Part shown: in pieces, positions 4,651-36,524 of the stretch
Position numbering within the stretch: the first letter of the stretch is position 1
Layout of the letters: each line of letters opens with the position of its first letter
Assembly: GCA_041661745.1 (NCBI GenBank)
Contig: JBAZTR010000001.1
Location: 252,471-298,305, forward strand
DNA length: 45,835 nucleotides
Origin: Patescibacteria group bacterium
GTDB lineage: Bacteria > Patescibacteriota > Patescibacteriia > UBA9934 > GWF2-40-263
Reading direction: 5' to 3'
Notes under the pieces: generated by a model
The model's database searches: none
What the model was told of the DNA's origin: nothing
The model's input: only the letters and a program-made list of their open reading frames with translations
Position numbers and translations under genes: made by a program

Positions 4651-4678
4651 AGATTAATTTTTAATTAATTGTTTGTTT

Positions 4679-18618: not shown

Positions 18619-18654
18619 CAATAAAAATAACCCCCGGATCTTTCGATCCAAGGG
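18619..18654 (-). terminator. Terminator of high-GC cassette 1
   Basis: Minus strand reads cccttggatc-gaaa-gatccggggg (10-bp stem with two G-U pairs) followed by ttattttta. Confidence 0.7.
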
Positions 18655-18679
18655 TGATGAGGAGGTTCGGCGACGGTCG

Positions 18680-19306
18680 TCAGCACCACTCCTCGCTGTC
18701 GATGAAGTTGGCGATGACCGCCTGGGCGTAGCTCTTGCGCAGGAGGTGGCCCCACTCCGGATCGTCCGTGGCCGCCAGGTCGCGGACCAGGATGGCACGG
18801 AAGACCGCGAGGCCGACAGTGGTGATGATGAGCTGTCGCACGGCCTTGTTGTAGCCCCTGTGGTTGTGGTGAAGCCAGGCTACGGCCTCGGCCTCATCGA
18901 TCTCGTCGAGACACGCGACACCGTACAACCTGACCATCGTCTCCCGGATCGTGCGGCGGGCATCGTTGCCCAAGGGGACGCGGTCCAGAAGGTTGCGGAG
19001 TTCGTTCTGGCTGGGGTTAGACCCAAGGTTCGCGACCTCGATGTGTACCTGTTTCGGATCAAGAGGCTTCACATCGCAGTCGCAGTCCACCGGATCGCAA
19101 ACGTCGAATCCGCCGCGTCCGATGTAGCTTTCCAAATCCTTGAGGTTGGAGAGAAGAACGCGGCGGAAAGCGGCCAGCTGCTCGACGATTTCCCACGGGC
19201 AGCACAGAATCTTCCGGTAGAGGTTGAAACCGGGCCATTCTTCCTTGACGGTCCGAAACCGCTCGAGGTGGTTGTGGGCGTGGCTGGTGTGGTCAGTGCT
19301 GGTCAT
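18680..19306 (-). CDS. Hypothetical protein of high-GC cassette 1 (208 aa; weak DinB-like His motifs)
   Basis: ATG at 19306 lies 10 nt after GAGGAG. GC-rich third codon positions. Balanced amino-acid composition, unlike the R/V/G/A-rich antisense ORF. His cluster at the N-terminus (HTSHAHNHLERF) and WLHHNHRGY near the C-terminus resemble the DinB-fold HxxxHRGQ motif. No search was run. Confidence 0.6.
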   Translation of the reverse strand: MTSTDHTSHAHNHLERFRTVKEEWPGFNLYRKILCCPWEIVEQLAAFRRVLLSNLKDLESYIGRGGFDVCDPVDCDCDVKPLDPKQVHIEVANLGSNPSQNELRNLLDRVPLGNDARRTIRETMVRLYGVACLDEIDEAEAVAWLHHNHRGYNKAVRQLIITTVGLAVFRAILVRDLAATDDPEWGHLLRKSYAQAVIANFIDSEEWC

Positions 19307-19356
19307 TTGTTCGTTTCTCCTCGAAAATACAAGATTAGACACGAGACGGACGAAAT

Positions 19357-19385
19357 AAGATAACACCAAGTCGCCGGTTTGTCAA
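19357..19385 (-). promoter_or_regulatory. Promoter of cassette 1
   Basis: Minus strand has TTGACA (19385-19380), a 17-nt spacer and TATCTT (19362-19357), with TGt immediately upstream of the -10. Confidence 0.55.
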
Positions 19386-19411
19386 CCTAGCCAAAATCGT
19401 GTTTAATGGGG

Positions 19412-19445
19412 TTACGAAACTACGAAAAACTACGAAACTACGAAA
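19412..19445. repeat. Four tandem CTACGAAA(aa) units in the divergent intergenic region
   Basis: ttacgaaa ctacgaaaaa ctacgaaa ctacgaaa. The array lies just upstream of a TGgTTTAAT extended -10 (19447-19455) for epmA and about 30 nt from the cassette 1 -35. Confidence 0.85.
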
Positions 19446-19479
19446 TTGGTTTAATGATTTAGTACCCCTCCCTTTTTTT

Positions 19480-20469
19480 ATGTCTTTATTAAGCAAAAAA
19501 GCCGCTTTAGAACAGCGGCAAATCATTCTCCGAGCTGTCCGCGATTACTTGTTTCAGGCCGGATATCTTGAAGTTCAAGTTCCCCTTTTAATCCGCGGCA
19601 CCAACCCGGACGCATTCTTGACCTCTTTTGAAGTTACTGAAAACGACCAATTGCGTGGTTATTTGACCACTTCGACGGAATTCCAAATTCTTCGTCTTTT
19701 GGCCGCTGGCTACGACAAGGTTTACACCATTGCCTCAAACTTCCGCGCCGGCGACAAAGACCAGACGCATAATCCCGAATTCACTATGTTGGAATGGGAG
19801 GCCGCCAATGTTGGCATGGAGGTTATTGAAAAAGAGGCTGAGGGGATTGTTTTGGCGGCGGTTGGGGCCTTAAAGGACGTTTCCCCCTCTCACCTCGGGA
19901 GAGGGGTTAGGGGTGAGGGAGCTTTTGAAAGGCTTTCCGTGCGCGAGGCTTTTAAAAAATATCTGGGAATTAATATTGCCCTGGATTTTTCGCTAGCCTC
20001 GATGGTTGAAGAGATTAAGAAAGCCGGTCTTGATGCCCCGCAGAATTTTCTTGACGATCAGGGTATTCTCTTCTCCTGGTTAATTGATAAAATTTCTCCA
20101 AAGTTGGGTTTTGAAAAACCAACTTGGCTTTACGAGTGGCCAATTTTTCAAACTTCCATGGCCGAGCCGGTTAAAGGCAATCCTGAAGCCGCTGATCGGA
20201 GCGAGCTTTACATCAATGGCTTAGAAATCGCTAATGGTTTTACCACGGTCAGTGATGCTGAGAAACAAAAAGCTTTATTTGATTTTCAACAAGCCGAACG
20301 ACAACGCCTTGGCAAGAAACCGATTGTTGTCGACGAGAAATATTTAGAGGACATAAAAAAAATGCCCCCGGCCGCTGGAATGGCCATGGGCATTGATCGT
20401 TTGGTTATGATTTTAACCGGGGCTTCGGAGATTAATGAAGTTTTAACTTTTGGCTCCGATGAACTTTAA
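19480..20469 (+). CDS. epmA: EpmA/PoxA-like class II lysyl-tRNA synthetase paralogue (EF-P lysine ligase-like)
   Basis: Class II aaRS catalytic-core motifs (YLEVQVPLL, NFRAGD..THNPEFTMLEWE, GMAMGIDRLVM). There is no anticodon-binding domain. ATG at 19480 (MSLLSKKAALEQRQ). Confidence 0.7.
   Translation: MSLLSKKAALEQRQIILRAVRDYLFQAGYLEVQVPLLIRGTNPDAFLTSFEVTENDQLRGYLTTSTEFQILRLLAAGYDKVYTIASNFRAGDKDQTHNPEFTMLEWEAANVGMEVIEKEAEGIVLAAVGALKDVSPSHLGRGVRGEGAFERLSVREAFKKYLGINIALDFSLASMVEEIKKAGLDAPQNFLDDQGILFSWLIDKISPKLGFEKPTWLYEWPIFQTSMAEPVKGNPEAADRSELYINGLEIANGFTTVSDAEKQKALFDFQQAERQRLGKKPIVVDEKYLEDIKKMPPAAGMAMGIDRLVMILTGASEINEVLTFGSDEL
19883..19920. repeat. GC-rich palindromic element inserted in frame in epmA
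   Basis: cccctctcacctcgggagaggggttaggggtgaggga translates as SPSHLGRGVRGEG. It uses the same CCCTCTC/GAGAGGG word class as the 39.0-kb palindrome. Confidence 0.6.
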
Positions 20470-21374
20470 ACACGCAAATGTTTACGCATGGCAAAGGTTG
20501 TGGAAACCAGACAAACAACGGCAACAGCCAAAAATTCCAGGCCAAAAACTAACGGTGACTGACCAATAAAAAAATCTTTTAATTGAGCCGGGGTTTCGAA
20601 ATAAGAAGTAAGTAACGGATCAAGAGCAATCGCCACCGGCACAATTATGGCGGCGGAAATAATCGTGGCTGAGAGGGAGAAAATTAAAGCTTCAACCAAA
20701 TACGGCGCGCGAATAAACCAGCCGGTCGCACCGACCAGTCGCATGATGGCAATTTCTTCACGATGGACAAAAATGGCCACGCGCACGGTATTTAAAATAA
20801 TCATGATGGCAATTAATAAAAAGATGGCAAAAATCAGTGAGCCAAAGAGTCGCGCTTTATAAGATATTTCCGACAGTCTGTTTAAAAGAAGTTCGTGATC
20901 GGTAAAATCCTTTTCTTCGATTTCGTCACGGAAAGATGGGTGGTCAAGCGCTTCCAAAATCATGGGATAGTTATCAACGGAATTGGCGCGAATTACCAAC
21001 TGGTAGCCAAAAGGGTTTCCGCCAACTTCATCAAGCGAAGCAAGAATCGTCGGGTTATCGGCGTGTTTTATTTTAAACAATTCCAAAGCTTCCTCGGGTG
21101 TAACGACTGAAACGCTTTTTACTTCGACTAAACTCTGCAAATAAGCAGCCGCGCTTTGTACATCGTCAGCGGCCGTGCCTACTTTAAACGAGGCGGAAAC
21201 GTCCACTCGACTTTCGACATTACTAATGGCGGCGCCGGTAGCCAAATTCAAAACCAACAAAACATCCAGAATTAACAAGGTTAAAACAAGAATACTAACC
21301 GTGGTTAAAGACAACCAAATATTCCTGAAAAAATGTTGAAAAGCGAATTTTATTATTCTAAAAAACGTGGTCAT
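20466..21374 (-). CDS. ftsX: Cell division ABC transporter permease FtsX
   Basis: N-terminal TM, periplasmic domain and 3 C-terminal TMs. Overlaps ftsE by 4 nt in the typical ftsEX arrangement. Confidence 0.85.
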   Translation of the reverse strand: MTTFFRIIKFAFQHFFRNIWLSLTTVSILVLTLLILDVLLVLNLATGAAISNVESRVDVSASFKVGTAADDVQSAAAYLQSLVEVKSVSVVTPEEALELFKIKHADNPTILASLDEVGGNPFGYQLVIRANSVDNYPMILEALDHPSFRDEIEEKDFTDHELLLNRLSEISYKARLFGSLIFAIFLLIAIMIILNTVRVAIFVHREEIAIMRLVGATGWFIRAPYLVEALIFSLSATIISAAIIVPVAIALDPLLTSYFETPAQLKDFFIGQSPLVFGLEFLAVAVVCLVSTTFAMRKHLRV

Positions 21375-22051
21375 AGACGATATCTTCCCCCTTCTTCATC
21401 AGAAATAATCTGACCATCACTTAAAGTAATGACGCGGTGCCGAAGATGATTAACAATATCGCGATTGTGGGTTACCAAAACCACTGTTGTGCCAAATTCA
21501 TTTATTTTTTTTAAAAGATTGACGATCTCGTGAGTATTGATAGTGTCCAAATTACCGGTCGGCTCATCGGCCACGATAATTTTTGGTTTATGAATTAAGG
21601 CGCGAGCAATGGCCACCCGTTGCTGTTCACCACCGGAAAGTTGGCGCGGATAACGACGACTGCAATCGGCCAAATTAACAATTTTTAAAACCTGGGAAAC
21701 TGTTTCGTTTATGCGTTGCCCGGTGCTGCCAACCGATTCCAACGCAAAGGCCACGTTTTCAAAAACCGTCTTTTGTGGCAAAAGTTTATAATCTTGAAAA
21801 ACCACACCCAACTGCCGGCGTAAATATGGCACCTCGGATGATTTGATTCGACTAATATCCCACCCGCCGATAATCACCTCGCCTTGCGAAGGCTGTTCTT
21901 CGGCAAATAAAAGTTTGGCCAAGGTGGTTTTTCCAGTACCACTTTGACCAACAATCGAAACAAGCTCGCCCGGTTTAATGTGCAAGCTTATGTTTTGCAA
22001 AGCCGCCATGTTGGGCGGATAAATTTTACTGACGTTTTTAAGCCGAATCAT
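21371..22051 (-). CDS. ftsE: Cell division ATP-binding protein FtsE
   Basis: Walker A GQSGTGKTT, signature LSGGEQQRV, Walker B IIVADEPTGNLD. ATG at 22051 (MIRLKNVSKIY) is preceded by AAGGGGG. Confidence 0.9.
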   Translation of the reverse strand: MIRLKNVSKIYPPNMAALQNISLHIKPGELVSIVGQSGTGKTTLAKLLFAEEQPSQGEVIIGGWDISRIKSSEVPYLRRQLGVVFQDYKLLPQKTVFENVAFALESVGSTGQRINETVSQVLKIVNLADCSRRYPRQLSGGEQQRVAIARALIHKPKIIVADEPTGNLDTINTHEIVNLLKKINEFGTTVVLVTHNRDIVNHLRHRVITLSDGQIISDEEGGRYRL

Positions 22052-22136
22052 ACCCCCTTTATGGTTGTCAAAAGACATTGTTTCTGATATGATACCACGC
22101 GTTGAAATAAGAGACAAAAAAATATTTGGGATAAAT

Positions 22137-22178
22137 GCGGGTATGGTTTAGTGGTAAAACGACTGCTTCCCAAGCAGT
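22137..22178 (+). pseudogene. tRNA-Gly(CCC)-like 5' fragment (acceptor 5' strand, D arm, anticodon arm) with no T arm or 3' acceptor strand
   Basis: gcgggta-tg-gtttagtggtaaaac-g-actgc-ttCCCaa-gcagt, then it runs straight into the GC-rich repeat. No tacccgc 3' strand follows. Confidence 0.6.
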
Positions 22179-22239
22179 AGTCGCGAGTCTCCCGCCTTTG
22201 GCGGGACCCCGCCAAAGCGAAGCGGCGGCGGGGCGATTC
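22179..22239 (+). repeat. tRNA-linked GC-rich multi-hairpin repeat, copy A
   Basis: agtcgcgagtctCCCGCCtttgGCGGGaCCCCGCCaaagcgaagcggcGGCGGGGc. Related copies lie at 22425-22480, 30881-30940 (minus) and 30986-31055 (minus). Confidence 0.8.
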
Positions 22240-22249
22240 TGTTTAAAAA

Positions 22250-22323
22250 GCGGGTATAGTACATCGGTAGTATATGACCTTCCCAAGGTCGAGAGACGGG
22301 TTCGACTCCCGTTACCCGCTCCA
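22250..22323 (+). tRNA. tRNA-Gly (anticodon CCC), CCA encoded
   Basis: Acceptor gcgggta/tacccgc, anticodon stem tgacc/ggtcg with loop ttCCCaa, T arm acggg-ttcgact-cccgt, then TCCA. Confidence 0.85.
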
Positions 22324-22335
22324 GCCTTAAAAAAT

Positions 22336-22411
22336 GCCACTTTAGCTCAGTTGGCAGAGCAGCGCTTTCGTAAAGCGAAGATCCCGGGTTCGAATCCCGG
22401 AAGTGGCTCCA
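22336..22411 (+). tRNA. tRNA-Thr (anticodon CGU), CCA encoded
   Basis: Acceptor gccactt/aagtggc, D arm agctcagttggcagagc, anticodon loop ttCGTaa, T arm ccggg-ttcgaat-cccgg, then TCCA. Confidence 0.85.
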
Positions 22412-22420
22412 TTTTTAAAA

Positions 22421-22568
22421 GTCGAGTCGCGGGTTTCCCGCCTCTGGCGGGACCCCGCCAAAACGAAGCGACGGCGGGGCAATCCCCGCCTTCGGCTCCA
22501 TCCCCCTTCGCCCAGCGAACGTGGGGCTTCGGAGGGATGTCCCCAACGAAGCTCGAACCTGTTTTTTG
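22421..22568 (+). ncRNA. Candidate structured RNA / repeat copy B plus a GC-rich extension downstream of tRNA-Thr
   Basis: Repeat core at 22425-22480, then further hairpins (ccccgcc-ttcgg..., catccc...gggatg, cccagcgaacgtgggg), ending in ctcgaacctgttttttg. No protein-like ORF. Not recognisable as tmRNA, SRP RNA, RNase P RNA or 6S RNA by eye. Confidence 0.35.
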
Positions 22569-22637
22569 TGAGAGCGAAGTGGGACAGTATAAATTAAATA
22601 AAAAAATACCGGCCTTATCAGCCGATATTTTTATTTT

Positions 22638-23591
22638 TTAGACTTGCATTAACTTCCAGATCTTTGAAGATTCCAAAAAGCTATCCATTACTTCAGCCAA
22701 ACCGCGTTTATAAACCACGATAGCCTTAATGTTATATTGTGTCTCTTCCTCGCTTTCAACCTTTTCCGTAACCATAACCAAAGTGTAAACCTGACCAACA
22801 TCAATAACTTCGCTAATAACATTCAGTTCGGCAGTGGTAACAAAGTTTGTCCATTCTTCCGGCATTTCGGCAACAGTTAAATGACCTAAGTCACCACCAC
22901 TGGCGGCGGTGGTATCTTCACTAACCTCGCCGGCCACGGTCGCAAAATCTTCGTTATTTTTAATTCTGGTCAAAGCTTGGTTTATTTTATCAGTTGTTTC
23001 GGTTTGAAGGGTTGCGTCGGATAAAACTTTTTCTTCAACCTGATCGGCTAAAACTAAAGGTTCCAAAGCGTGCGTTAAAAAATCTTGGCGTGTCCAATTA
23101 AAGACTCTTTCGATTTCCGTGTAAAAAGCCTCTTCTGAACCGCTTTGAGTAAAGGCGGCTTGTAAATTTTCTTCCACCTTTACCGGATCCAACTCGACTG
23201 AATATTGCTTAGCCAATTGAGACACGACAATGTGGTCAATCATGCTGTCTAAAACATTAGAAGCCCTTTCCGTTGCCGGCAACTGTTCTTCTTCGGGTGT
23301 TTGATTGGCCTCATAAAAAGTTTCTAAAGCATCGTACTCTTTATAAAAATCTTTAAAAGATATTGGTTGTAAATTTACCAAAGCTACTGGATACGGAACA
23401 ACGGCCGTGACCGAACGAACAAGCATGTCGTTAGCCGGTAAAAAATAAACAGCCGTTGACACCGCGGCCAACACTACCAAAAGCAAAGCCCCGAAACTAA
23501 GGCCGATTAACAGACGAAACTTCTTATTGGTGCTTTTCAGAGGCGGGGTTACGGGCGACGGACTGTACTCATTAAGTGGAGTGATTTCCAT
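22638..23591 (-). CDS. PpiC/parvulin-type peptidyl-prolyl isomerase (PrsA/SurA-like), membrane anchored
   Basis: N-terminal TM. Rotamase signature FATVAGEVSEDTTAASGGDLGHL. Confidence 0.7.
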   Translation of the reverse strand: MEITPLNEYSPSPVTPPLKSTNKKFRLLIGLSFGALLLVVLAAVSTAVYFLPANDMLVRSVTAVVPYPVALVNLQPISFKDFYKEYDALETFYEANQTPEEEQLPATERASNVLDSMIDHIVVSQLAKQYSVELDPVKVEENLQAAFTQSGSEEAFYTEIERVFNWTRQDFLTHALEPLVLADQVEEKVLSDATLQTETTDKINQALTRIKNNEDFATVAGEVSEDTTAASGGDLGHLTVAEMPEEWTNFVTTAELNVISEVIDVGQVYTLVMVTEKVESEEETQYNIKAIVVYKRGLAEVMDSFLESSKIWKLMQV

Positions 23592-24042
23592 AAATTTTGA
23601 TCATGTCGAATTTATTAATGTCGAAAAAGTAATACCACCATTTAAGGGGGTTGGCAAGAGCATTTAAATCCGGGACAGAAAGACTATCAACCTCGGCCGC
23701 GGTTAAAGCGTCGCCGTTATTCGAAGGCGAAACTGAATCAAGACCGGAAAGAATAACCACGCTTTCCCCGGGTTTAGATAAGCCTAATTTTATTCTGGCT
23801 TCTTGTTCAATATAAGTTTCGGTTTGAACCGAAGACATAAAGGTTGTTAATTCCGAATTCTCCGCTTCCATGGTCGCTTTTTCGGCCGTCAGTTCGGCAA
23901 TCTCTTGCTGAATAATATAATTGCGAGCAAATTCACGGCCAAAAGAAAAAACCAAAAGCGAAAAAATAACCAAATTGGCAATCAAAAAAGTCCGAGATGA
24001 CAAAAGTCGCGATAAACCTGAACCCTGTCTTAATAACGACAT
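23572..24042 (-). CDS. ftsB: Septum formation initiator FtsB/DivIC family
   Basis: Single TM followed by a coiled coil (IIQQEIAELTAEKATMEAENSEL) and YIEQEARIKLGLSKPGE. Confidence 0.7.
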   Translation of the reverse strand: MSLLRQGSGLSRLLSSRTFLIANLVIFSLLVFSFGREFARNYIIQQEIAELTAEKATMEAENSELTTFMSSVQTETYIEQEARIKLGLSKPGESVVILSGLDSVSPSNNGDALTAAEVDSLSVPDLNALANPLKWWYYFFDINKFDMIKIYGNHST

Positions 24043-24524
24043 ATTTTAATTAGGTCGTTCAAAAGATGATACAGTTCGATCGGACGATGAGTATGACGGA
24101 AAGCTAAATCGGCTCGATCGCCGGCCGTACGCAAATAAATGGTGCCGTAACGAAAAACCGTTGGCCAAAGACCTTTAATATGATAACTGACTTCTTCGAT
24201 GTCTTTCAGTTCGACCTCGGTTACAACACCTTCTAAAAAACCATGCTGGACAAGATCAATAATTCGTTGATCGGTAACGATTAAAACTGTTCGTTGCCAA
24301 GCAAAGTATGACCGCGAAACCATAAAAACGCCCATACCAACCACGACGACAAAAAATAGCACGCCCTCAACGCCGCGTTGAATTAAGGGAACAAGAAAGA
24401 AAAAAGGTGCGGCAATCCAAAAAAACAAAAAAATCCACCAAGGTAAGGCTGGAACAAAATCTTCATGAACAATCTCCAAAATTTTCTCGTTTAAACGGAG
24501 TTTAATTAAACTTTCAGCACCCAT
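24030..24524 (-). CDS. Membrane protein with a bacterial PH (DUF304-like) domain
   Basis: Two TM helices followed by a small beta-rich domain (VTDQRIIDL...YHIKGLWPTVFRYGTIYLRTAG). Confidence 0.45.
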   Translation of the reverse strand: MGAESLIKLRLNEKILEIVHEDFVPALPWWIFLFFWIAAPFFFLVPLIQRGVEGVLFFVVVVGMGVFMVSRSYFAWQRTVLIVTDQRIIDLVQHGFLEGVVTEVELKDIEEVSYHIKGLWPTVFRYGTIYLRTAGDRADLAFRHTHRPIELYHLLNDLIKICRY

Positions 24525-24528
24525 AAAT

Positions 24529-25815
24529 TTACAATCTTTTTAAAGCGTCTCTAGCGGCTTCGCGGTCATCCCAGGGAATGGTTTTTTCATTAGCCACAGC
24601 CATAACTGGTTCACTCCCCTTCCCGGTAATAAGAACCAAATCACCTGTTTCGGCCAAACCAACGGCTTTTTTAAAAGCTTCGGCCCGATCAAGAATTCTA
24701 AACAAATTTTCGCCTTCATGCTTACCTGCTTCAAGCGCACCGGCCGCGACCTGATCAATTATTTCTTGTGGATCGTCATCGTACGGATCCTCGTTCGTCA
24801 CAATAACAATATCGGCTTTTTCCCCGGCCAATTTTCCCAAAAGCGGCCGCCTGGCAACATCACGGCCACCACCGGTTGAACCCAACACGTTAATAATTTT
24901 TTGATGTGGAAGAAGGCGAACAGTTTCGTAAAGAGCGGCCAAAGCTTTAGGCTCAAAGGCATAGTCAACAATAACGGAAAAATTTTGGCCTTCGTTGATT
25001 GTTTCAAGACGGCCAGGCACAGCCTTAACTTTACTCACGACCTCAATTATTTCCTGAACGGAAAAACCAAGAGCTTTCATAATCGTAGCGGCACAAACGG
25101 CGTTATACACGTTGGGTAGGCCGATTGGTTTAATAAAAGCCGGTTTATCCTCCCAATTAAACGCCGAGCCTTCGGCCGACGACTTAACCTCTTCGGTATC
25201 AACATTGAACTCAAACAAATTTCCTTTGGCCAAAGATAAAAAGTACGGGGCAAACTCGTTGTCAATATTGACGACAAACGCCTTGTGGATTACTTTTCCA
25301 TTCAGCTTTTTTTCTGGGGTTTTGGCAACAAACTCAAAAAATTTACCCTTGGCTTTCTTGTAATTTTCAAATCCGCCGTGAGCCTCGACATGCTCGGGCC
25401 ACAAATTGGTAAGAACAGCAACATCAAAATTTATTCCAACATGACGGAATTGGGCTACTCCCTGTGATGAAGTTTCCACAATCGCGTATTCACAACCGGC
25501 CGCCACCATTTGTTTTAATAATTTTTGCGTTTGAAACCGACCGAGCATGGTCATTTTTTTGTCATTGGTCCATTCTTTGTCGCCAACCTTAAAGCTTACT
25601 GTCGAAGCCCAACCGACTTTCTTTCCCGTGGCTTCGAGCATTTGGCCCAGGAACTGAACAGTTGTTGATTTACCCGAGGTGCCGGTGATCCCAATGACAA
25701 TTAATTTATTCGATGGAAACCCAAAAGCCACGGCCGCAAGTTTGGCCAGCGACCAGTGATAAAGCGACAAAAGCGGCGTGGGGACTAATTTTCTGACCGT
25801 TTTTTTTAGGTTCAT
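24529..25815 (-). CDS. murE: Mur ligase family protein, MurE-like, lacking the usual N-terminal domain
   Basis: GITGTSGKSTT P-loop, VETSSQG..FRH, LTNLWPEHVEAHGGFENYKKAKGKFF, GSTGGGRDVARRP...IVTNEDP. Confidence 0.7.
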   Translation of the reverse strand: MNLKKTVRKLVPTPLLSLYHWSLAKLAAVAFGFPSNKLIVIGITGTSGKSTTVQFLGQMLEATGKKVGWASTVSFKVGDKEWTNDKKMTMLGRFQTQKLLKQMVAAGCEYAIVETSSQGVAQFRHVGINFDVAVLTNLWPEHVEAHGGFENYKKAKGKFFEFVAKTPEKKLNGKVIHKAFVVNIDNEFAPYFLSLAKGNLFEFNVDTEEVKSSAEGSAFNWEDKPAFIKPIGLPNVYNAVCAATIMKALGFSVQEIIEVVSKVKAVPGRLETINEGQNFSVIVDYAFEPKALAALYETVRLLPHQKIINVLGSTGGGRDVARRPLLGKLAGEKADIVIVTNEDPYDDDPQEIIDQVAAGALEAGKHEGENLFRILDRAEAFKKAVGLAETGDLVLITGKGSEPVMAVANEKTIPWDDREAARDALKRL

Positions 25816-25871
25816 GCGGGTAAAACATTAATAACCGGGCCAATCAGCCTAGTTGTTAAACGATTATTTTT

Positions 25872-26573: not shown

Positions 26574-26576
26574 ATT

Positions 26577-28034: not shown

Positions 28035-28040
28035 AATTTA

Positions 28041-28442: not shown

Positions 28443-28444
28443 AC

Positions 28445-29113: not shown

Positions 29114-29114
29114 A

Positions 29115-29690: not shown

Positions 29691-29721
29691 AAATATTTCT
29701 TAAACATAATACAAGAAAACA

Positions 29722-29749
29722 GACAAAAAAGCCATCGATTGACGGCTTT
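29722..29749 (-). terminator. Terminator downstream of high-GC cassette 2
   Basis: Minus strand reads aaagccgtc-aatc-gatggcttttttg. Confidence 0.65.
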
Positions 29750-29821
29750 ATTGTTTAAGATAATTAAAAGGCCCCGGAGAATGAACTCCGAGACCAAAAC
29801 GAGAATAGCGGCTCGCGACGT

Positions 29822-30469: not shown

Positions 30470-30543
30470 GTTCAACTCCATTCAACGTTGATGAGGGGAT
30501 GCTACACGGCTCGTGTAGTAGAGTCTGCTTCAAGCAGCGTTTG

Positions 30544-30572
30544 AATCTAACAAAAAAAACAAAAAAAGTCAA
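30544..30572 (-). promoter_or_regulatory. Promoter of cassette 2
   Basis: Minus strand has TTGACT (30572-30567), a 17-nt spacer and TAGATT (30549-30544), with TGt upstream of the -10. It shares a ~25-nt block with the cassette 3 promoter. Confidence 0.55.
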
Positions 30573-30575
30573 GGA

Positions 30576-30610
30576 TAAACAAAAGACCCCCGTTGTAAAA
30601 CGGGGGTGGT
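30576..30610 (-). terminator. Hairpin terminator immediately upstream of the cassette 2 promoter
   Basis: Minus strand reads ccacccccg-ttttacaa-cgggggtcttttgttt. Confidence 0.65.
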
Positions 30611-30642
30611 AGATATGTTTAAAAAATACACTTACTAACAAG

Positions 30643-30768
30643 AAAAACCCTTTTAAATTTTTTCAGGACAAGGAACGGGTGTCAGACGAGGAGGCGTACC
30701 ATTTAGGTACGACGACGAAGTCAGACAGGACCCATGACGCAGTCCTGGGAAAATTTAGAAGGGTTTTT
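30643..30768 (-). other. ~126-nt long imperfect inverted-repeat element forming the trailer of tRNA-Lys (candidate sRNA or MITE-like element)
   Basis: Terminal inverted repeats aaaaaccctt (30643-30652) and aagggttttt (30759-30768). Internal caggac/gtcctg words (three copies), a gtacc-taaat-ggtac hairpin and a direct repeat gtctgac x2. Starts 3 nt after the CCA end of the tRNA. Confidence 0.4.
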
Positions 30769-30770
30769 CA

Positions 30771-30845
30771 TGGTGCGCTGGGAGGGGATCGGACCCTCGA
30801 CCTCGGGCTTAAAAGGCCCTCGCTCTACCACTGAGCTACCAGCGC
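30771..30845 (-). tRNA. tRNA-Lys (anticodon UUU), CCA encoded
   Basis: Reverse complement: gcgctgg-ta-gctcagtggtagagc-g-agggc-ctTTTaa-gcccg-aggtc-gaggg-tccgatc-ccctc-ccagcgc-ACCA. Confidence 0.85.
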
Positions 30846-31072
30846 AAATTCTGGTACTGGTAGCGAAGTGGTAATTATACCACTGCCCCGCCGTCGTTGG
30901 ACTTTGGCGGGGTCCCGCCATAGGCCTCCGAAGGCGGGAAGCTACCAGCGCAAATTCTGGTACTGGTAGCGAAGTGGTAATTATACCACTGCCCCGCCGT
31001 CGTTGGACTTTGGCGGGACGAGGTCCACCGAAGTTCGCCTCGAACGAAGGTGGAAGCTACCAGCGCATATTG
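30835..31072 (-). repeat. Tandem repeat (106 + 115 + partial 17 nt) duplicating the tRNA-Lys 5' end, its leader, an extended -10 promoter and GC-rich repeat copies C and D
   Basis: A 77-nt block gctaccagcgcaaattctggtactggtagcgaagtggtaattataccactgccccgccgtcgttggactttggcggg is identical at 30835 and 30941. A third gctaccagcgca begins at 31056. Confidence 0.9.
30874..30882 (-). promoter_or_regulatory. Extended -10 promoter (TGgTATAAT) of tRNA-Lys, with a duplicate copy at 30980-30988
   Basis: Minus strand reads agTGgTATAAT. The hexamer ends 28 nt upstream of the tRNA 5' end. An identical copy lies 106 nt further upstream. Confidence 0.5.
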
Positions 31073-31133
31073 CGGCGATATAATAGCGCCTTTCTCTATA
31101 CTTGACAAGATCCACGGTTTATCCACAAAAAGG

Positions 31134-31161
31134 TTGACGCATTTTTTGATTTAACTATAAT
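31134..31161 (+). promoter_or_regulatory. Promoter of the small zinc-ribbon gene
   Basis: TTGACG (31134-31139), 16-nt spacer, TATAAT (31156-31161). Confidence 0.55.
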
Positions 31162-31196
31162 TTCCAAAGGCCTTAAAAAATAATCTATCCAACACT

Positions 31197-31337
31197 ATGG
31201 AGATGGGTACATGCGTCGGCTGTGGAGCCGAAGAAACCGAAATCAACGAAGATGGTTACTGTACCGACTGTGCCGCGCTTGAAGGTGAGGCAACAAAAGG
31301 TGAGAGTGACGAAGAAACCACCGAAGAAGAAGGTTAA
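31197..31337 (+). CDS. Small (46 aa) zinc-ribbon protein with an acidic tail
   Basis: MEMGTCVGCGAEETEINEDGYCTDCAALEGEATKGESDEETTEEEG has a CxxC-x12-CxxC pattern. It is bracketed by a consensus promoter and a strong terminator. It is below the size cutoff of the ORF track, and the listed antisense ORF 31185..31424 is spurious. No SD. Confidence 0.5.
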   Translation: MEMGTCVGCGAEETEINEDGYCTDCAALEGEATKGESDEETTEEEG

Positions 31338-31340
31338 TTT

Positions 31341-31376
31341 AAAAACCACCCCGAGCTTGTCGAGGGGTGGTTTTTG
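31341..31376. terminator. Bidirectional terminator (small gene / murG)
   Basis: aaaaaccacccc-gagcttgtcga-ggggtggttttt. Confidence 0.75.
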
Positions 31377-31386
31377 ATTTAAAAGC

Positions 31387-32496
31387 TTAACAACACTCAG
31401 CTCCTGACCGAAAATTTTTAGCAATCCTCTCCTGTCCCAAAACCACCATTTCTTCAGCCACGTCGGTTTTTAAAAGTTTGTTCAATTTGTCTCCCATAAC
31501 TACTCTTATTGGTGTTTCCTTTAGAAGATGCAAGATTTCTTTCAACAAAATTGTCGGAGTTGTCGCGGTTTGTTTTAAAACAACAGCTGTACCATCAATA
31601 ACCGCGGCGTTATCTTCCTGCGGCGAGTTGGGTAGCGGAATAACAATCGCCGCTTTTTTTGTGGCCGCCAATTCAGTGATTGTCGCCATGCCCGCTCGAC
31701 AAACCACCAGATCAGCCGCGGCAAAGGCCAAAGGCATTTCGTCAGTCAAAAGCTCAAAGGTTCGATAACCGTCAGATGTTTTTGCTTCAACTGTCTTCCC
31801 TTTCCCGGTTAAATGAATCAGGTTGGCCGAAAACAAAAGCTCATCGGTCAAGGCGGAAATATTCTGATTTAGCCAAAGCGAACCGGTTCCGCCGCCGATA
31901 GCCAAAACCGTTGGCTTATTTTCATTTAAACCAAAATGTTTTATGGCCTCAACTTTATTGGTGTGCAAAAAAGCCGAACGAACCGGATTGCCAACTAATT
32001 TACTTTTAGAAAAATCATCAACAAGCTTCGGCCAAGCCACGGTCACAAGCGAAGCAAACGGCGCGGTTAATTTATTTGATAAAAGTGGTCGAACATCTTG
32101 TTGGTGAACCAGCGAAGGAATTCTCAAAAACCAACCAATTATTACCAACGGAACCGAAGTGTAGCCGCCGGCCGAAACGATTAAAGCCGGCTTTTCTTTT
32201 TTTAAAATAATCCATGCGGCATACAGAGCGGCCGCCAAACGAAACGGTAAAAGCAACCAAGCCAAACTTGGATAACGCGGTAGTTTGGCTTCAGGCAGAC
32301 AATGGAACTCAATTCGCTCTTTGAACATCAGTTCTCGTTCTGGCCCATGTGGTGTGCCAACAAAAACAAATTCGGCCGAAGAATCTTTTCTTCGCCAAGC
32401 TTCAATAATCGCGAGCAGGGGTGTAACCGGTCCGAGTGTGCCCCCACCGCAAAACATTATTTTATGGCCAACGGGATGAGAGTGGTTGTGTTCCAT
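31387..32496 (-). CDS. murG: UDP-N-acetylglucosamine--N-acetylmuramyl-(pentapeptide) pyrophosphoryl-undecaprenol GlcNAc transferase MurG
   Basis: IMFCGGGTLGPVTPLLAI N-terminal G-loop, IGGGTGSLWLN, typical GT28 length. The start is uncertain because it overlaps the ftsW end by 35 nt. Confidence 0.85.
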   Translation of the reverse strand: MEHNHSHPVGHKIMFCGGGTLGPVTPLLAIIEAWRRKDSSAEFVFVGTPHGPERELMFKERIEFHCLPEAKLPRYPSLAWLLLPFRLAAALYAAWIILKKEKPALIVSAGGYTSVPLVIIGWFLRIPSLVHQQDVRPLLSNKLTAPFASLVTVAWPKLVDDFSKSKLVGNPVRSAFLHTNKVEAIKHFGLNENKPTVLAIGGGTGSLWLNQNISALTDELLFSANLIHLTGKGKTVEAKTSDGYRTFELLTDEMPLAFAAADLVVCRAGMATITELAATKKAAIVIPLPNSPQEDNAAVIDGTAVVLKQTATTPTILLKEILHLLKETPIRVVMGDKLNKLLKTDVAEEMVVLGQERIAKNFRSGAECC

Positions 32497-33601
32497 ATCG
32501 AGAAACGTTTAAAACAACCCCGATAGCCGCCAAGGAGATGGCCAAAGAGGTGCCGCCGTAACTTATAAAAGGCAAGGTAACGCCGGTCATAGGCAAAATA
32601 CCGACCATAGAACCAATATTAACAAAGGCTTGGAGGGTTAACCAGGTGGCAATGCCTATAACAACATATTTTCCAAAAGCGTCTGGAGAATTTTTAGCGA
32701 TCTTAATTGCCCGAGAAAAAAACCAAAAAAACAAAACAACCAAAAGGGCGGCAAAGACAAAACCCATTTCTTCAGCAATTACGGCAAAAATGGAATCACC
32801 GGAAACTTCCGGCAAATACTCAAACTTTTGTCGGGAGTGGCCGTAGCCAAGGCCAAAAAAACCGCCGGAACCGATTGCCAACAAAGCCTGGTTAATATGA
32901 TAGCCAACACCTTGCGGATCAAGTTCAGGATATAAAAAAGTGGTAAAACGCGCCGCTCGATACGGGGCCACGGCAATCAATAAACCAAAGGCAGCCAAAC
33001 CGCCTAAAAATAATACTCCAACGTGTGCGAGCGATGCTCCGGCCACAAAATAAACAACCACCGCGGTCGCGGCAATAATCGACAAGGTCCCGATATCCGG
33101 CTGTAAAATAATTAACAGTGCGACCGAACCGAGAATAAAAATAAAAGGAAGAAACCCGCCGTGAAAATCCTTAACACCGTAGGTGCCACGTTTTTCCAAC
33201 CAAGCCGCCAAATAAAACAAAAAAGTTAATTTGGCAATTTCCGCCGGCTGAATGGAAAAAAGACCGAAAATATTTAACCAGCTGTGCGAAGTTCCGAAAT
33301 CCGAACCAATGCCCGGAATAAAAACTAAAACCAAAAGTATCAACGTGACCCCAAGAAGCAGCGGGGCGTTTTTCTTCCAAAAAGTATAAGGAATACGGCT
33401 GGTGACATAAAGGCCAAACAATCCGGGAATCAAACCTAAAATCAACTGATGCTTAACATAAAATAAACTGTCACCGTTTTGCCTGGCGTACCCAAGCGGT
33501 CCGGAGGCCGAAGCCAACATGATAAAGCCAAATAACAAAAGAACGCCGACAATGATCAAAAATCGATAATCAATTGAATGCGCGTTCTTTGCCGTAAGCA
33601 T
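32462..33601 (-). CDS. ftsW: SEDS family peptidoglycan polymerase FtsW/RodA
   Basis: 10-TM profile, QPAEIAKL, LPEVSGDSIFAVIAEEMGF, LPFISYGGTSL. Confidence 0.85.
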   Translation of the reverse strand: MLTAKNAHSIDYRFLIIVGVLLLFGFIMLASASGPLGYARQNGDSLFYVKHQLILGLIPGLFGLYVTSRIPYTFWKKNAPLLLGVTLILLVLVFIPGIGSDFGTSHSWLNIFGLFSIQPAEIAKLTFLFYLAAWLEKRGTYGVKDFHGGFLPFIFILGSVALLIILQPDIGTLSIIAATAVVVYFVAGASLAHVGVLFLGGLAAFGLLIAVAPYRAARFTTFLYPELDPQGVGYHINQALLAIGSGGFFGLGYGHSRQKFEYLPEVSGDSIFAVIAEEMGFVFAALLVVLFFWFFSRAIKIAKNSPDAFGKYVVIGIATWLTLQAFVNIGSMVGILPMTGVTLPFISYGGTSLAISLAAIGVVLNVSRYGTQPLSSRWP

Positions 33602-33604
33602 ATT

Positions 33605-34660
33605 TTATTTTGCCAGAGCGTCGAGTAGAGCCAAAGAAATTCCCAGTGCCGAAGAAACAATAGAAATGACCCAAAAGCGCATGACAATTTTCGGTTCAGG
33701 CCAGCCATTGGCTTCCAAATGATGATGAATCGGCGTAGACAAAAATAATTTATGTTGGAAAACTTTGCGCCAAAAAAGTTGAATGATAACCGACAATGAT
33801 TCGATTACAAAAACCAATCCAATAATCGGCAACAACAAGGCTGAGTTGGTGAGCAATGCCACCAGTGCCAAAGTCACCCCCAAAGCCATGGAACCGGTGT
33901 CGCCCATAAAAAAGCGGGCTGGATTGATGTTAAACCACAAGAAGGCTAACAGCGCCCCAATAATTACCCCACAAAAAACAGCCAAATCGTATTTACCTTG
34001 AGCAAAAGAAATAATGGCAAAAGCACTGAACGAGGTAAGCAAGGTGCCGCCGGCCAAACCATCGAGACCATCGGTTTCATTAACGGAAAAGGCTGTAGCC
34101 ACCACCACAAAGACAAAAAACGGAAAATACCACCAACCAATGTTAAAGTCACCGACAAACGGTACGTGCAGCAAATCCCAATCAAGTTTAAAGGTAAACC
34201 ACAGAGCGCCGACAACAGCGATAGCTAAAAAAATCAAAAAGCGATGACGCATGCGCAAGCCACCGCCCTTTGGCCCAAGCCCGCGCACATTTAAATAATC
34301 ATCAAGCAAACCTACCAAAGCCGAAGCCATCAAAGCCCCAAGCGGTAAAAGCGTTTGGGCACGTGTTAAAAAACTGAATTGACCAATCCATGAATCCGGA
34401 AACGCTTGTGAAAAATACAGTAAACCAACAGCTAAAATAAACACGACTGCCCAAATCAAAACTCCGCCCATGGTGGGGGTGCCGGCTTTTTTGGCGTGAA
34501 GCATGGAGAAAATCGGCGTGTCACCGGCGTTTCTAATGCGTTTGCCTAATTTATATTTATATAAAACGTGCGTCCAAAAAGGCGTTAAAGCCACGGCCAG
34601 AATAAAGGCAACAGTTGTTAAGACAAGAATACGGACTAGTTCGAACGATTCAAGGGTCAT
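33605..34660 (-). CDS. mraY: Phospho-N-acetylmuramoyl-pentapeptide transferase MraY
   Basis: NETDGLDGLAGG, FMGDTGSMALG, HHHLE motifs. Confidence 0.9.
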   Translation of the reverse strand: MTLESFELVRILVLTTVAFILAVALTPFWTHVLYKYKLGKRIRNAGDTPIFSMLHAKKAGTPTMGGVLIWAVVFILAVGLLYFSQAFPDSWIGQFSFLTRAQTLLPLGALMASALVGLLDDYLNVRGLGPKGGGLRMRHRFLIFLAIAVVGALWFTFKLDWDLLHVPFVGDFNIGWWYFPFFVFVVVATAFSVNETDGLDGLAGGTLLTSFSAFAIISFAQGKYDLAVFCGVIIGALLAFLWFNINPARFFMGDTGSMALGVTLALVALLTNSALLLPIIGLVFVIESLSVIIQLFWRKVFQHKLFLSTPIHHHLEANGWPEPKIVMRFWVISIVSSALGISLALLDALAK

Positions 34661-35052
34661 AAATTTAATAAAGTAACAAAATACATAGCCGCCAAAAGCA
34701 TAAGCTGAACCAGCAAAGCCATGACAACTAAAAATATTGATAATGCTTTTTCTCTTCCAAAAAATCTAACGGAAAAAAAACTGTTTATAGCAATAACCAA
34801 CAACCCAAAAAGGGGCAGCTGAAAAATCATGTACCAGGGACCAAACTTATCAACCCCAAAAAAAATGTTGTAATGGAGGGGAATATATTGGCCACCCTCA
34901 GCCGTAGGCATTAAACGAAGAAACGGCGCAGCTAAAACCACCAACCAAACAATCCACGAAAAAATAAAACTAAGGCGAAAAACTTTTGAAGTCTGCCAGG
35001 TGGTTTTAAAGGATTCGATGTTAGTTCGGTGGAAATGAAAAAACTTCGACAT
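34657..35052 (-). CDS. Small membrane protein (131 aa, 3-4 TM), unknown function
   Basis: Hydrophobic ORF overlapping the mraY start by 4 nt. Confidence 0.55.
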   Translation of the reverse strand: MSKFFHFHRTNIESFKTTWQTSKVFRLSFIFSWIVWLVVLAAPFLRLMPTAEGGQYIPLHYNIFFGVDKFGPWYMIFQLPLFGLLVIAINSFFSVRFFGREKALSIFLVVMALLVQLMLLAAMYFVTLLNL

Positions 35053-35057
35053 AGCCT

Positions 35058-35288
35058 TTATTCAACGGCAATAATTTTAGTAATGCCGGGAATTTTTTGT
35101 TTTAGCAAATCTTCGACACGGGTCTTCAGAGTTATTGCAGCAAAGGGACAACCGTGACAGGCACCGATCAATTTAACTCTTACTTCCCCACTTGCTTCAT
35201 CAACCCCGATTAACTCAATTCCGCCGCCATCGTGCTCTAACATGGGGCGAATTTCCGTGGCCAAAATGTGTTCAACTTCTTCTTTCAT
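35058..35288 (-). CDS. NifU C-terminal domain (Nfu-like) Fe-S cluster protein
   Basis: IRPMLEHDGGGIELIGV...KLIGACHGCPFAAITLK (CxxC). Confidence 0.8.
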   Translation of the reverse strand: MKEEVEHILATEIRPMLEHDGGGIELIGVDEASGEVRVKLIGACHGCPFAAITLKTRVEDLLKQKIPGITKIIAVE

Positions 35289-35383
35289 AGGTGCTTTAAA
35301 TTATAGAGGAAAACAGTGTTTATGAAAAGATGAGATAAAAAATAGGTCCAAGTCACACTAAGCGCGACGAGGACCCGGTGGAC

Positions 35384-36334
35384 CTAGGCAGGAAGGACTG
35401 CCAGGATACGGAAAGCGAGATGGCCGACCCCGCCATCACTCCAGACCTTGTGAACAGCGGAAAGACCGCCTTCCTCAGAGTTACCAAAGACGAGACGGAA
35501 GCCGCGGTCGGAGTTGTTTTCACACCACTCCCAGTTCTTGATGGAACCGAGGTTGGGCAGGTTAGTGCCCAAGGCACGGTTGGCGAGGACGAAGAGGTTG
35601 CCACACCAGTTCATCTCCTCAACCGTGGGCAGACGAACAGTGTCGGAGGGTAGTCCCCAGACCTCGGCCAATTCTGTCAGCCGACCGTCGTGCAGGGTAC
35701 TCCAGTCCGTATTGGAGCAGCGCTGGAGATCAAGGAGCTTGGCCACCTTGTCGTCCGGGCCGTAGCTGACCAGGTCGTTCCAGTTGGGCTTGGGTCTTGT
35801 TTCGATCAGGATCCAGCAACCAAGCAAAGGGCGACGTTCGATCTCGCTAGGGTGTTTCAAGTTCTCGCCCCAGGCCGGGAAGATGTACTTGTCACCATGG
35901 CCGCTGCCGACCACCTGTTCGAGTTCTCCAGCCGGGCAGAAGACGGGGATGAGACCGAAGTCTACACAGGCTCGAGCTGTGGCCGAGGTGATGGTCGGAA
36001 ACTCCGGGAAACACATCTCCCAACCGTTGGCCTCGAGTGCATAGTTCCAGAAAGTCCGCGGGTTCAGGCCGCGGATAAGGAGCTCACCCTTGGCCGAAAG
36101 AGAGAGGAGCGGGATGGTTGGCACGGCCGTGAACGGGTCGGCGAGGAAGACTTCGAGGGCCTGGTGCGTCTCGTCCGGTGAGCCGTTGAGCCGCGCAGCG
36201 AGGCGTCTGACCAGAGGCCAGTTCTTTCCGAAGAACAGAGCCTGCACCACCTCACGAGAGAGGTGATTCGGGTCGTCGGCGGGAAGGTCCGCTCTTTCGA
36301 GCAGATCCCGGAACTGTCTGTGTGTCACGATCAT
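35384..36334 (-). CDS. Hypothetical protein of high-GC cassette 3 (316 aa; C-terminal part weakly FGE-sulfatase/DUF323-like)
   Basis: ATG at 36334 lies 5 nt after AGGAAGGAGA. GC-rich third positions. C-terminal motifs RLPTVEEMNW, GSIKNWEWC, GFRLVFG and LAFRI resemble RLPTEAEWEY / GNVWEW / RGGS / GFR of the FGE-sulfatase fold. No search was run. Confidence 0.6.
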   Translation of the reverse strand: MIVTHRQFRDLLERADLPADDPNHLSREVVQALFFGKNWPLVRRLAARLNGSPDETHQALEVFLADPFTAVPTIPLLSLSAKGELLIRGLNPRTFWNYALEANGWEMCFPEFPTITSATARACVDFGLIPVFCPAGELEQVVGSGHGDKYIFPAWGENLKHPSEIERRPLLGCWILIETRPKPNWNDLVSYGPDDKVAKLLDLQRCSNTDWSTLHDGRLTELAEVWGLPSDTVRLPTVEEMNWCGNLFVLANRALGTNLPNLGSIKNWEWCENNSDRGFRLVFGNSEEGGLSAVHKVWSDGGVGHLAFRILAVLPA

Positions 36335-36458
36335 GATGATCTCCTTCCTATCCGATTCACCCATCTTTACCCGATTGGCTATTATGGGATTCACGAATGG
36401 TCGGTGACTACGCAGGATACCGCCCGCGCGCGGTGTGCCCCACTTGAGGCAACGGTTT

Positions 36459-36487
36459 ATTATGAAGAAAAATAACAAAAAAGTCAA
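36459..36487 (-). promoter_or_regulatory. Promoter of cassette 3
   Basis: Minus strand has TTGACT (36487-36482), a 17-nt spacer and CATAAT (36464-36459). A GC-rich leader of about 120 nt follows. Confidence 0.55.
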
Positions 36488-36491
36488 GGAT

Positions 36492-36524
36492 AACAAAACC
36501 GCCCCGTTTAACGGAGCGGCTTTT
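36492..36524 (-). terminator. rpmA terminator, abutting the cassette 3 promoter
   Basis: Minus strand reads aaaagccgctccg-ttaaa-cggggcggttttgtt. Confidence 0.65.

Follow-up and report, generated by a model that had tools for sequence, protein, structure and literature searches.

We analysed a 45,835-nt stretch of DNA from a Patescibacteria group bacterium (NCBI GenBank assembly GCA_041661745.1, contig JBAZTR010000001.1, positions 252,471 to 298,305 of the forward strand), which at this full length is hereafter called the window. Within it lie three sharply bounded GC-rich blocks, each with a single gene, which we refer to as cassettes 1, 2 and 3 (C1, C2 and C3). In 200-nt sliding windows, GC content reached 58–65.5% at ~18.62–19.33, 29.78–30.50 and 35.38–36.35 kb, and the mean of the whole window was 44%. 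The original prediction, made from the bare sequence, had reported this enrichment from hand counts of 63–72%; the enrichment stands, but those figures were somewhat high.

C1 lies between the genes for an EpmA-like and a secreted protein, C2 between tRNA-Lys and the translin gene, and C3 between rpmA and nifU. Pfam confirmed the neighbours, namely a class II aminoacyl-tRNA synthetase-like protein (EpmA type), translin, GT2, MurD, MurG, FtsW, MraY, NifU, L27 and PyrG, so that the first annotation of the three gaps (secreted protein/epmA, tRNA-Lys/translin/GT2/murD and rpmA/nifU) can be retained. For C2, the Pfam scan of neighbours covered the promoter-distal side only.

The coding sequences (CDSs) have a mean GC content of 61.6% (C1), 62.7% (C2) and 60.0% (C3); the host genes among which they lie have 42.5%. 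Each block contains one open reading frame (ORF) on the minus strand with a codon-position pattern of the coding type (Table 1). The GC content at third codon positions (GC3) of the three genes is 6.6–8.6 standard deviations above that of 40 host genes (0.405 ± 0.049, maximum 0.51). The blocks also contain long plus-strand ORFs, an antisense artefact that is common in genes with high GC3. Since 35 of the 40 host genes already lie on the minus strand, the shared orientation of the three cassettes is uninformative. An explanation by structured RNA was rejected, as no Rfam family matched any of the three blocks, codon periodicity was strong and the z-scores of mRNA folding were only −1.9 to −2.3.

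Chimeric assembly had been named as a possible source of such blocks. A comparison of junctions with second assemblies covered C1 and C3, and contigs obtained from other runs and with other assemblers (ERZ27249449, 203 kb; SRR18595301; SRR6484324) reproduced both, with their flanks on either side, at 100% identity. C1 and C3 are not chimeric.

A consensus scan placed a predicted promoter of the form TTGAC(A/T)-17-TAnnnT before each of the three genes, and GGAG-type Shine–Dalgarno sequences precede the cassette genes. Of all terminators predicted in the 18-kb stretch, those of C1 and C2 are in the top four by strength; the hairpin and T-run of C3 are absent from the terminator list of the scan. 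Judged by these predicted signals, each of the cassettes combines a promoter, a single gene and a terminator. In general, the picture of three compositionally foreign, autonomous units between conserved housekeeping genes, each with its own expression signals, was borne out.

We compared six such units from four genomes part by part (loci outside the window carry L numbers). GC content was 23–45% in the promoter, 41–58% in the non-coding leader, 60–63% in the CDS, 60–66% in the 3′ untranslated region (UTR) and 25–33% in the 60 nt after the terminator; the leader of the C1-family locus L024 has 217 nt at 58% GC. This means that the GC-rich segment is essentially the whole transcript and not the codons alone.

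The promoter was found to be a part of the cassette rather than host wiring. The C3 unit and that of its homologue in L021, which lie at different loci in different genomes, are homologous from the −35 element into the leader, and the C2 and C3 upstream modules agree with ~71% identity in a 63-nt segment that contains an exact 14-mer (TCCTTGACTTTTTT) seen nowhere else in the window. These two likenesses speak against the earlier view that each gene had been wired to a host-style promoter built from host sequence. In ~1 Mb of related sequence, TTGACWWTTTTGTT was present only in the C3 and L021 promoters and at one ftsW site recurring in three redundant loci. Additionally, the hairpins of the 3′ UTR are alike in C3, L021 and L022.

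A search for target-site duplications and att-like repeats around the three cassettes returned only T-run and terminator similarities, which are not convincing. No flanking repeat of a tRNA 3′ end surrounds C2; the repeats near tRNA-Lys are duplications of its 5′ end and promoter, upstream of the tRNA. At L024, repeated palindromic elements with the core GAGTCGATCGACTC bracket the C1-family island (4552–4685 and 5753–5894). They comprise a 51-nt direct repeat (73% identity) and a 44-nt inverted repeat, and nothing comparable was seen beside the window cassettes.

Table 1. Features of the cassettes and of elements discussed in the text. Positions refer to the window unless a locus is named; GC1, GC2 and GC3 are GC fractions at the three codon positions; promoters and terminators are predicted.
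Feature	Position	Strand	Details
C1 CDS	18680–19306	minus	208 aa; GC1/GC2/GC3.63/.39/.82
C1 promoter	19357–19385	minus	TTGACA/17/TATCTT, TG before −10; consensus scan
C1 intrinsic terminator	18622–18655 (scan: 18655–18630)	minus	11-bp stem and T-run; GC content drops here
C2 CDS	29822–30469	minus	215 aa; GC1/GC2/GC3.61/.43/.83
C2 upstream module	30528–30607	minus	upstream terminator hairpin, promoter TTGACT/17/TAGATT (30572–30544) and start of leader
C2 terminators	29728–29795	minus	29795–29770 (10-bp stem); second at 29749–29728
C3 CDS	35384–36334	minus	316 aa; GC1/GC2/GC3.63/.45/.73
rpmA terminator and C3 promoter	36459–36523	minus	terminator 36523–36495, directly followed by TTGACT/17/CATAAT (36487–36459)
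C3 5′ leader	36335–36452	minus	~118 nt, 55% GC, non-coding; start homologous to L021 leader
C3 3′ UTR	35335–35383	minus	GGTCC...GGACC long-loop hairpin and T-run; then conserved host nifU promoter region
tRNA-side hairpin element	22179–22237, 22425–22483, 30884–30925, 30990–31017		
GNAT-like gene	L027 13923–14531; L028 7655–8218; L033 17260–17850		
Heptamer repeats	19413–19445; rpmA–nifU gap of L027, L031, L035, L036		

Sites in relatives and homologues elsewhere

A metagenome scan with MraY yielded 80 loci (61–93% MraY identity), about 20 of which keep rpmA and/or nifU as neighbours. In nine distinct syntenic relatives (L027, L031, L032, with L033 and L034 being the same sequence, L035, L036, L047, L053, L054 and L080) the gap between rpmA and nifU measures 77–270 nt, compared with 1247 nt here. 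The short gap in these relatives makes C3 a lineage-specific insertion, and the comparison with empty sites for which the original prediction had called thus speaks for a gain.

The same site can carry another cassette. In L028, whose MraY is 89% identical (that of L027 is 93% identical), it holds a different GC-rich gene of 285 aa with a GC3 of 0.74, and the right boundary of the island is the same conserved nifU promoter sequence (TTTTTTATCTCATCTT) as in the window. At the DNA level, the leader and the N-terminal ~70 codons of this gene match the C3-family member of L021 with 81% identity over 266 nt. Its C-terminal domain differs from that of L021 and is shared with a GC-rich gene at another site (L033:101–874). 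On the other side of rpmA, GC-rich inserts were found in L047, L048 and L054. The rpmA–nifU gap is one insertion hot spot with cassette replacement. The site of C2 is held by another gene in L027, where we found an inverted tRNA-Lys and a membrane-protein gene. Among ten further GC-rich islands that we examined, six were Pfam orphans.

We searched for relatives of the three proteins among 5.8 billion clustered proteins and 1.84 billion representatives. The relatives numbered 76 for C2 (a family of at least 76 clusters of ~210 aa), 13 for C1 and only four for C3 (48–60% identity). All homologues with a taxonomic name are Patescibacteria. In data with one genome per species, 10 of the 12 C2 matches belong to named Patescibacteria groups and two are unclassified; the named groups are Magasanik-, Falkow-, Azam-, Parcu- and Saccharibacteria, and C2 relatives were found solely in Patescibacteria and in unclassified metagenome-assembled genomes (MAGs). 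Named C1 relatives all come from Ca. Uhrbacteria, one MAG of which has two paralogues three genes apart.

Scans of the three proteins against Pfam, PHROGs and PADLOC gave nothing usable (best PHROGs E-value 0.049; no match at E ≤ 1 to the PADLOC models of known anti-phage defence systems). IMG/VR contained no relatives of C2 or C3, and neither the INPHARED phages nor the PLSDB plasmids gave a tblastn match to any of the three proteins. Profile–profile comparison with hhalign detected no relatedness among the C1, C2 and C3 families.

Homologues in other genomes also stand out from their surroundings. GC3 is 0.86 in the C1-family gene of L024 (host 0.31; neighbours 0.31 ± 0.03), 0.71 and 0.78 in the C3-family genes of L021 (host 0.47) and L022 (host 0.45), and 0.81 in the C2-family gene of L014 (host 0.58). 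The C3 homologues of L021, which adjoins ftsK, and L022, which adjoins HD and SET genes, form single-gene islands of 60–62% GC with flanks of 44–46%. Other C1 relatives have a GC3 0.08–0.2 or more above that of their hosts, even in contexts of 53–57% GC. Over 14 C2 loci, the GC3 excess runs from ~0 (L001, L011 and L016) to +0.40 (this window), and none lies more than 0.03 below its host. None of the loci of C1, C2 or C3 homologues is syntenic with the window, and C2 homologues sit in unrelated neighbourhoods. The contexts we inspected are small-genome, housekeeping ones with flanks of 39–59% GC.

The families evolve fast, with a ratio of nonsynonymous to synonymous substitution rates (dN/dS) of 0.3–0.7, and their domains are shuffled. 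This suggests that they are strain-variable accessory genes involved in interactions with the host or in conflict. We are highly confident that the three blocks are autonomous, horizontally mobile single-gene cassettes which sit at intergenic hot spots and belong to families known only from Patescibacteria. Because three unrelated orphan families, and others in relatives, recur as transcript-bounded GC-rich units with replacement at a hot spot, this is more than routine horizontal transfer.

Two further observations concern the same clade. A syntenic GNAT-like gene (Table 1) has a GC3 ~0.17 above that of the host in both L027 and L028, the host backgrounds of which lie 0.15 apart; possibly it belongs to the same class of GC-rich genes and is older. 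Tandem heptamers of the CGTAAAA/TTTTACG type (e.g. tttacgtttttacgcttttacacttttacg) are common in intergenic regions of the clade and may serve as sites for a DNA-binding protein specific to it.

Three unrelated orphan families

The three proteins, which could not at first be assigned to any well-characterised family, are unrelated Pfam orphans. C2 is the best defined of them in structure. An alternative start at 30481 would extend it to 219 aa. Across 36 sequences, four cysteines (C55, C58, C82 and C85, arranged as CxxC...CxxC) do not vary. The family also conserves the motifs YRSAIVHxG and LGRLPDTVIA, and behind them comes a tail resembling a helix-turn-helix (HTH). The AlphaFold model has a mean confidence score (pLDDT) of 94 and consists of a long N-terminal helix, a CxxC...CxxC zinc ribbon modelled as a β-ribbon, a helical domain and HTH-like C-terminal helices. 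The zinc ribbon and HTH suspected at first sight are consistent with this confident model and with the four invariant cysteines. Fold searches with the model found nothing significant in PDB or BFVD, the similarity to HTH regulators and phage HTH proteins being weak and partial, and the C2 profile gave only chance matches against PDB sequences. We consider C2 a putative zinc-ribbon/HTH DNA-binding regulator with a new domain arrangement.

An initial, broad alignment of C2 proved too divergent for use in a locus search. The idea of a single high-GC clade inside the family was dropped, as members with high GC3 are scattered over a star-like tree.

Several observations were made around C2 and its homologues. 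A perfect 13-nt palindrome, CTGCTTGAAGCAG, lies just 3′ of the −10 element, at the start of the C2 leader (30522–30534, minus strand), and could act as an operator or, as a hairpin, stabilise the 5′ end; the similar sequences CGTTGCCTCAAG and CGTTGTCTCAAAC open the leaders of C3 and its L021 homologue. The C2-family genes of L012 and L013 have in common a conserved 5′ leader (…GAAAAGAGGATRG…CCACTCYGAYTAA…) ~110 nt upstream, which suggests a cis-regulatory RNA or an operator of one branch of the family. In the Magasanikbacteria MAG L005, another GC-rich single gene (3467–4267, GC3 0.79) lies 1.5 kb upstream of the C2 homologue; its product has multiple HTH domains and a ParB-like N-terminal motif.

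Two additional GC maxima in the window, at 22.1–22.6 and 30.65–31.1 kb, correspond to tRNA genes and tRNA-associated repeats without cassettes. Upstream of tRNA-Lys (30771–30845), the interval 30834–31110 (minus strand) contains two tandem copies, exact over 78 nt and spaced by 106 nt, of a unit that starts with the tRNA-Lys 5′ end (GCGCTGGTAGCT) and continues with a GC-rich hairpin and a GGTATAAT box. They resemble duplicated 5′ fragments of the tRNA with promoters, and they account for the rise to 55–57% GC beside C2. A GC-rich hairpin element (~40–59 nt, …CCCGCCTTTGGCGGGACCCCGCCAAAGCGAAGCGGCGGCGGGGC…) is repeated beside the tRNA genes for Gly, Thr and Lys with 85–92% identity. At 22137–22196, there is a weak tRNA-like Rfam match that was not called by ARAGORN.

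C3 would have 326 aa if translation began at the upstream ATG at 36364. In its family the N-termini are variable, the C-terminal two thirds are conserved, and the motifs RLPT-EE-N, WEWCEN and GFR-L stand out. These motifs resemble the FGE-sulfatase/C-type-lectin fold (SUMF1, the C-terminal domain of EgtB, PorK and the targets of diversity-generating retroelements, DGRs). The FGE-like nature first suggested for C3 drew weak encouragement from the low-confidence model (pLDDT 52), whose best Foldseek matches in PDB (EgtB, pFGE, PorK, OvoA and SenA) all have the FGE fold but are non-significant (E 0.3–3). In contrast to genuine FGE-sulfatases, five members of the C3 family did not match Pfam PF03781 at E ≤ 10, and the C3 profile produced only chance matches against PDB sequences. 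C3 may be an FGE- or C-type-lectin-like ligand-binding protein with swappable N-terminal modules. A role as the variable protein of a DGR was rejected: unlike in such systems, there is no template repeat for C3, the segment 35384–35600 being repeated nowhere in the window. No reverse transcriptase was noted in the window, only part of the ORFs of which were scanned against Pfam.

C1 is a Cys/His-rich orphan with conserved CxC and W-LH-NH--YN motifs. A word-indexed protein search revealed no relatives, and exhaustive HMMER searching recovered the 13 distant clusters (25–50% identity), which have both motifs in common. The protein is plausibly a metal- or redox-linked Cys/His helical protein. 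A DinB identity, suggested on the basis of His motifs, is not supported by sequence comparison, since none of 14 family members matched any DinB model (Pfam, E ≤ 10). The same applies to an EgtB-type link between the cassettes, as the three families are unrelated in the hhalign comparison.

Comparison with known single-gene units

The closest known anatomy is that of the phage moron, a concept that reportedly comes from the work of Hendrix and colleagues on lambdoid phages. A moron, like the cassettes, consists of a single gene that brings along a sigma-70 promoter and an intrinsic terminator and separates two genes that are neighbours in related genomes. It is distinct in base composition from what surrounds it and is transcribed independently, which for the cassettes is predicted from sequence. 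In contrast to morons, the window cassettes are flanked by housekeeping genes of a cellular chromosome instead of lying in a prophage, the phage searches found no homologues, and many Patescibacteria carry GC-rich units of the same families. They are moron-like cassettes in a cellular chromosome.

Classical horizontally acquired genomic islets, which consist of compositionally atypical ORFans and often lie at tRNA genes, are similar in their deviant GC content and codon usage, their absence from close relatives and their orphan proteins, and one of the three cassettes adjoins a tRNA gene. Unlike islets, each unit here has a single gene and no evident att sites (integrase genes were not specifically searched), the GC boundary coincides with the transcript ends, and gene and AT-rich promoter are conserved together from genome to genome. 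Over ~25 loci, moreover, the excess in GC is one-sided, which simple amelioration does not predict. C2 also differs from tRNA-targeted islands, which would be expected to have an integrase and to be flanked by a direct repeat of the tRNA 3′ end.

Integron cassettes, too, are single-gene mobile units, mostly without an assigned function and mutually replaceable at a site. However, they are promoterless, carry attC and are arrayed at intI/attI, whereas each window unit brings a promoter of its own and the three are scattered over 17 kb. No attC-like imperfect inverted repeat is shared by the 3′ ends of C1–C3; integrase genes were not searched for.

Origin of the GC-rich composition

In the model that we favour, a unit would comprise an AT-rich sigma-70 promoter, a GC-rich leader, one CDS, a GC-rich 3′ UTR and a terminator, its single gene being drawn from any of the three unrelated orphan families. 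Such units would move horizontally among Patescibacteria and land in intergenic gaps just behind the terminators of housekeeping genes. Their GC content of 60–63% would most likely derive from high-GC Patescibacteria lineages, with amelioration still incomplete. We give about an even chance to this combination of circulation between Patescibacteria and high-GC patescibacterial origin.

Candidate donors of this kind exist among the MraY relatives, which include lineages of 61–66% GC with a core-gene GC3 of 0.80–0.90. The codon usage of the islands correlates with that of core genes from the high-GC relatives (r 0.63–0.77) and with that of other islands (0.55–0.90), compared with −0.14 to −0.18 for the host. 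GC1 and the Arg/Lys ratio are shifted upward in the islands as well, and the three codon positions match the expectation for a genome of ~62% GC. Additionally, single-gene transfers detected in Patescibacteria are mostly from Patescibacteria to Patescibacteria (PMC12455944).

Several results weigh against this origin. We found no high-GC genome in which any of the three families is native at a GC3 >0.8; the best donor candidates, L023 and L109, have a context of only 57–59% GC and a gene GC3 of 0.83–0.84. Random transfer among lineages of 35–66% GC should also produce clearly negative cases, yet GC3 was never clearly below that of the host: the largest deficit in ~25 loci, including hosts of 53–57% GC, was 0.03. 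C3 and its L021 homologue differ by 44% in protein and have diverged by ~1.2 synonymous substitutions per site (dS). They have a homologous AT-rich promoter (23–37% GC), and the GC3 of both is still ~0.72. Had both units stayed in AT-rich hosts ever since they diverged, neutral amelioration would be expected to have reduced it. Intergenic regions of the high-GC relatives have 47–64% GC and are less AT-rich than the cassette promoters. Finally, because host core genes differ from those of the closest relatives by a dS of 1.25–2.3, the absence of C3 from relatives cannot be dated as recent.

Some of these results are what one would expect if the cassettes were long-term residents of AT-rich Patescibacteria and the GC-richness of their transcripts were actively maintained, a serious rival explanation that we nevertheless rate as less likely. 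Maintenance could act through selection on RNA, e.g. for long-lived or structured mRNAs in cells that degrade imported RNA. It could also act through GC-biased gene conversion, which would be limited to the unit since only the unit is homologous across different loci. The coincidence of the GC-rich segment with the transcript fits this explanation, as do the absence of a clearly negative GC3 excess in three unrelated families, the persistently GC-rich body of the diverged C3/L021 pair behind a homologous AT-rich promoter, the AT-richness of cassette promoters relative to intergenic regions of high-GC relatives, and the near-constant GC3 excess of the GNAT-like gene against different backgrounds. 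A selective setting is conceivable: according to a 2026 preprint (10.64898/2026.06.21.733656), Patescibacteria take up RNA from their hosts and break it down, and they have a codon usage complementary to the one of GC-rich hosts.

On the other hand, a raised GC1 and the preponderance of Arg over Lys are what long residence in a high-GC genome leaves behind, and three C2 members (L001, L011 and L016) have the ordinary composition of their hosts. Folding of the mRNAs was only mildly better than that of shuffled sequences (z −2.3 and −1.85, 20 shuffles). The effects reported for GC-biased conversion in bacteria are far below a GC3 shift of +0.4. A stronger form, which we consider quite improbable, holds that the transcripts of these mobile single-gene units are kept GC-rich like those of the hosts within AT-rich genomes, as a selected trait tied to an RNA-scavenging, host-attached lifestyle. 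If so, possible forms would include stored mRNAs that survive an RNase-rich cytoplasm, mRNAs that rely for translation on tRNAs imported from the host, or mRNAs with an action inside the host.

It is very unlikely that the cassettes are remnants of phages or plasmids, whether true morons or defence genes that outlasted the decay of a mobile element. Their moron-like anatomy, deviant GC content, position between genes adjacent in relatives, fast evolution and domain shuffling would suit such a history. Nevertheless, the searches of IMG/VR (C2 and C3), INPHARED and PLSDB found no relatives, those of PHROGs and PADLOC nothing significant, and the flanks are housekeeping genes that are syntenic in relatives. 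No integrase, transposase or phage gene adjoins the cassettes, although integrase genes were not specifically searched.

Capture from a GC-rich host bacterium of the episymbiont (Actinomycetota, Chloroflexota or similar), close to the partner donor first envisaged, seems to us highly improbable. The known hosts of Patescibacteria are GC-rich and Patescibacteria take up foreign nucleic acids (10.64898/2026.06.21.733656), so the composition would fit, and the unit is bounded like a transcript. However, the very large protein searches found few relatives, and these are, wherever named, Patescibacteria; this is why we rate a host origin low. In addition, the inspected contexts are all small-genome and housekeeping ones, PLSDB, which includes many actinobacterial plasmids, had no matches, and AT-rich sigma-70 promoters travel with the genes.

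Hardly credible is the view that the blocks are artefacts, either a chimeric assembly with reads from some high-GC organism or GC-rich non-coding RNA in which the ORFs are spurious: abrupt jumps in composition are what a chimera would give, and chance long ORFs, here present on both strands, are expected in high-GC DNA, but the junctions of C1 and C3 recur in independent contigs, GC3 far exceeds GC2, the protein families are conserved, the C2 model is confident, Rfam is silent and unrelated metagenomes show the same architecture.

Patescibacteria account for much of bacterial diversity and have tiny genomes and a host-dependent life, and how they acquire and exchange accessory functions is poorly known. 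The window shows a simple and repeatable unit of exchange, a promoter, one orphan gene and a terminator, which recurs across classes of the phylum and whose GC-rich signature is one-sided. If its signature reflects incomplete amelioration, as in the origin from high-GC Patescibacteria that we favour, it marks a directional flow of genes from rare high-GC to AT-rich lineages and offers a cheap way to spot recent acquisitions in genomes of the candidate phyla radiation. If the signature is maintained, it would represent a new constraint at the transcript level, linked to the recently proposed RNA-feeding lifestyle. Either way, the three conserved orphan families are targets for work in the few Patescibacteria that can be cultivated, among them C2, whose model is unmatched among solved or predicted viral structures.

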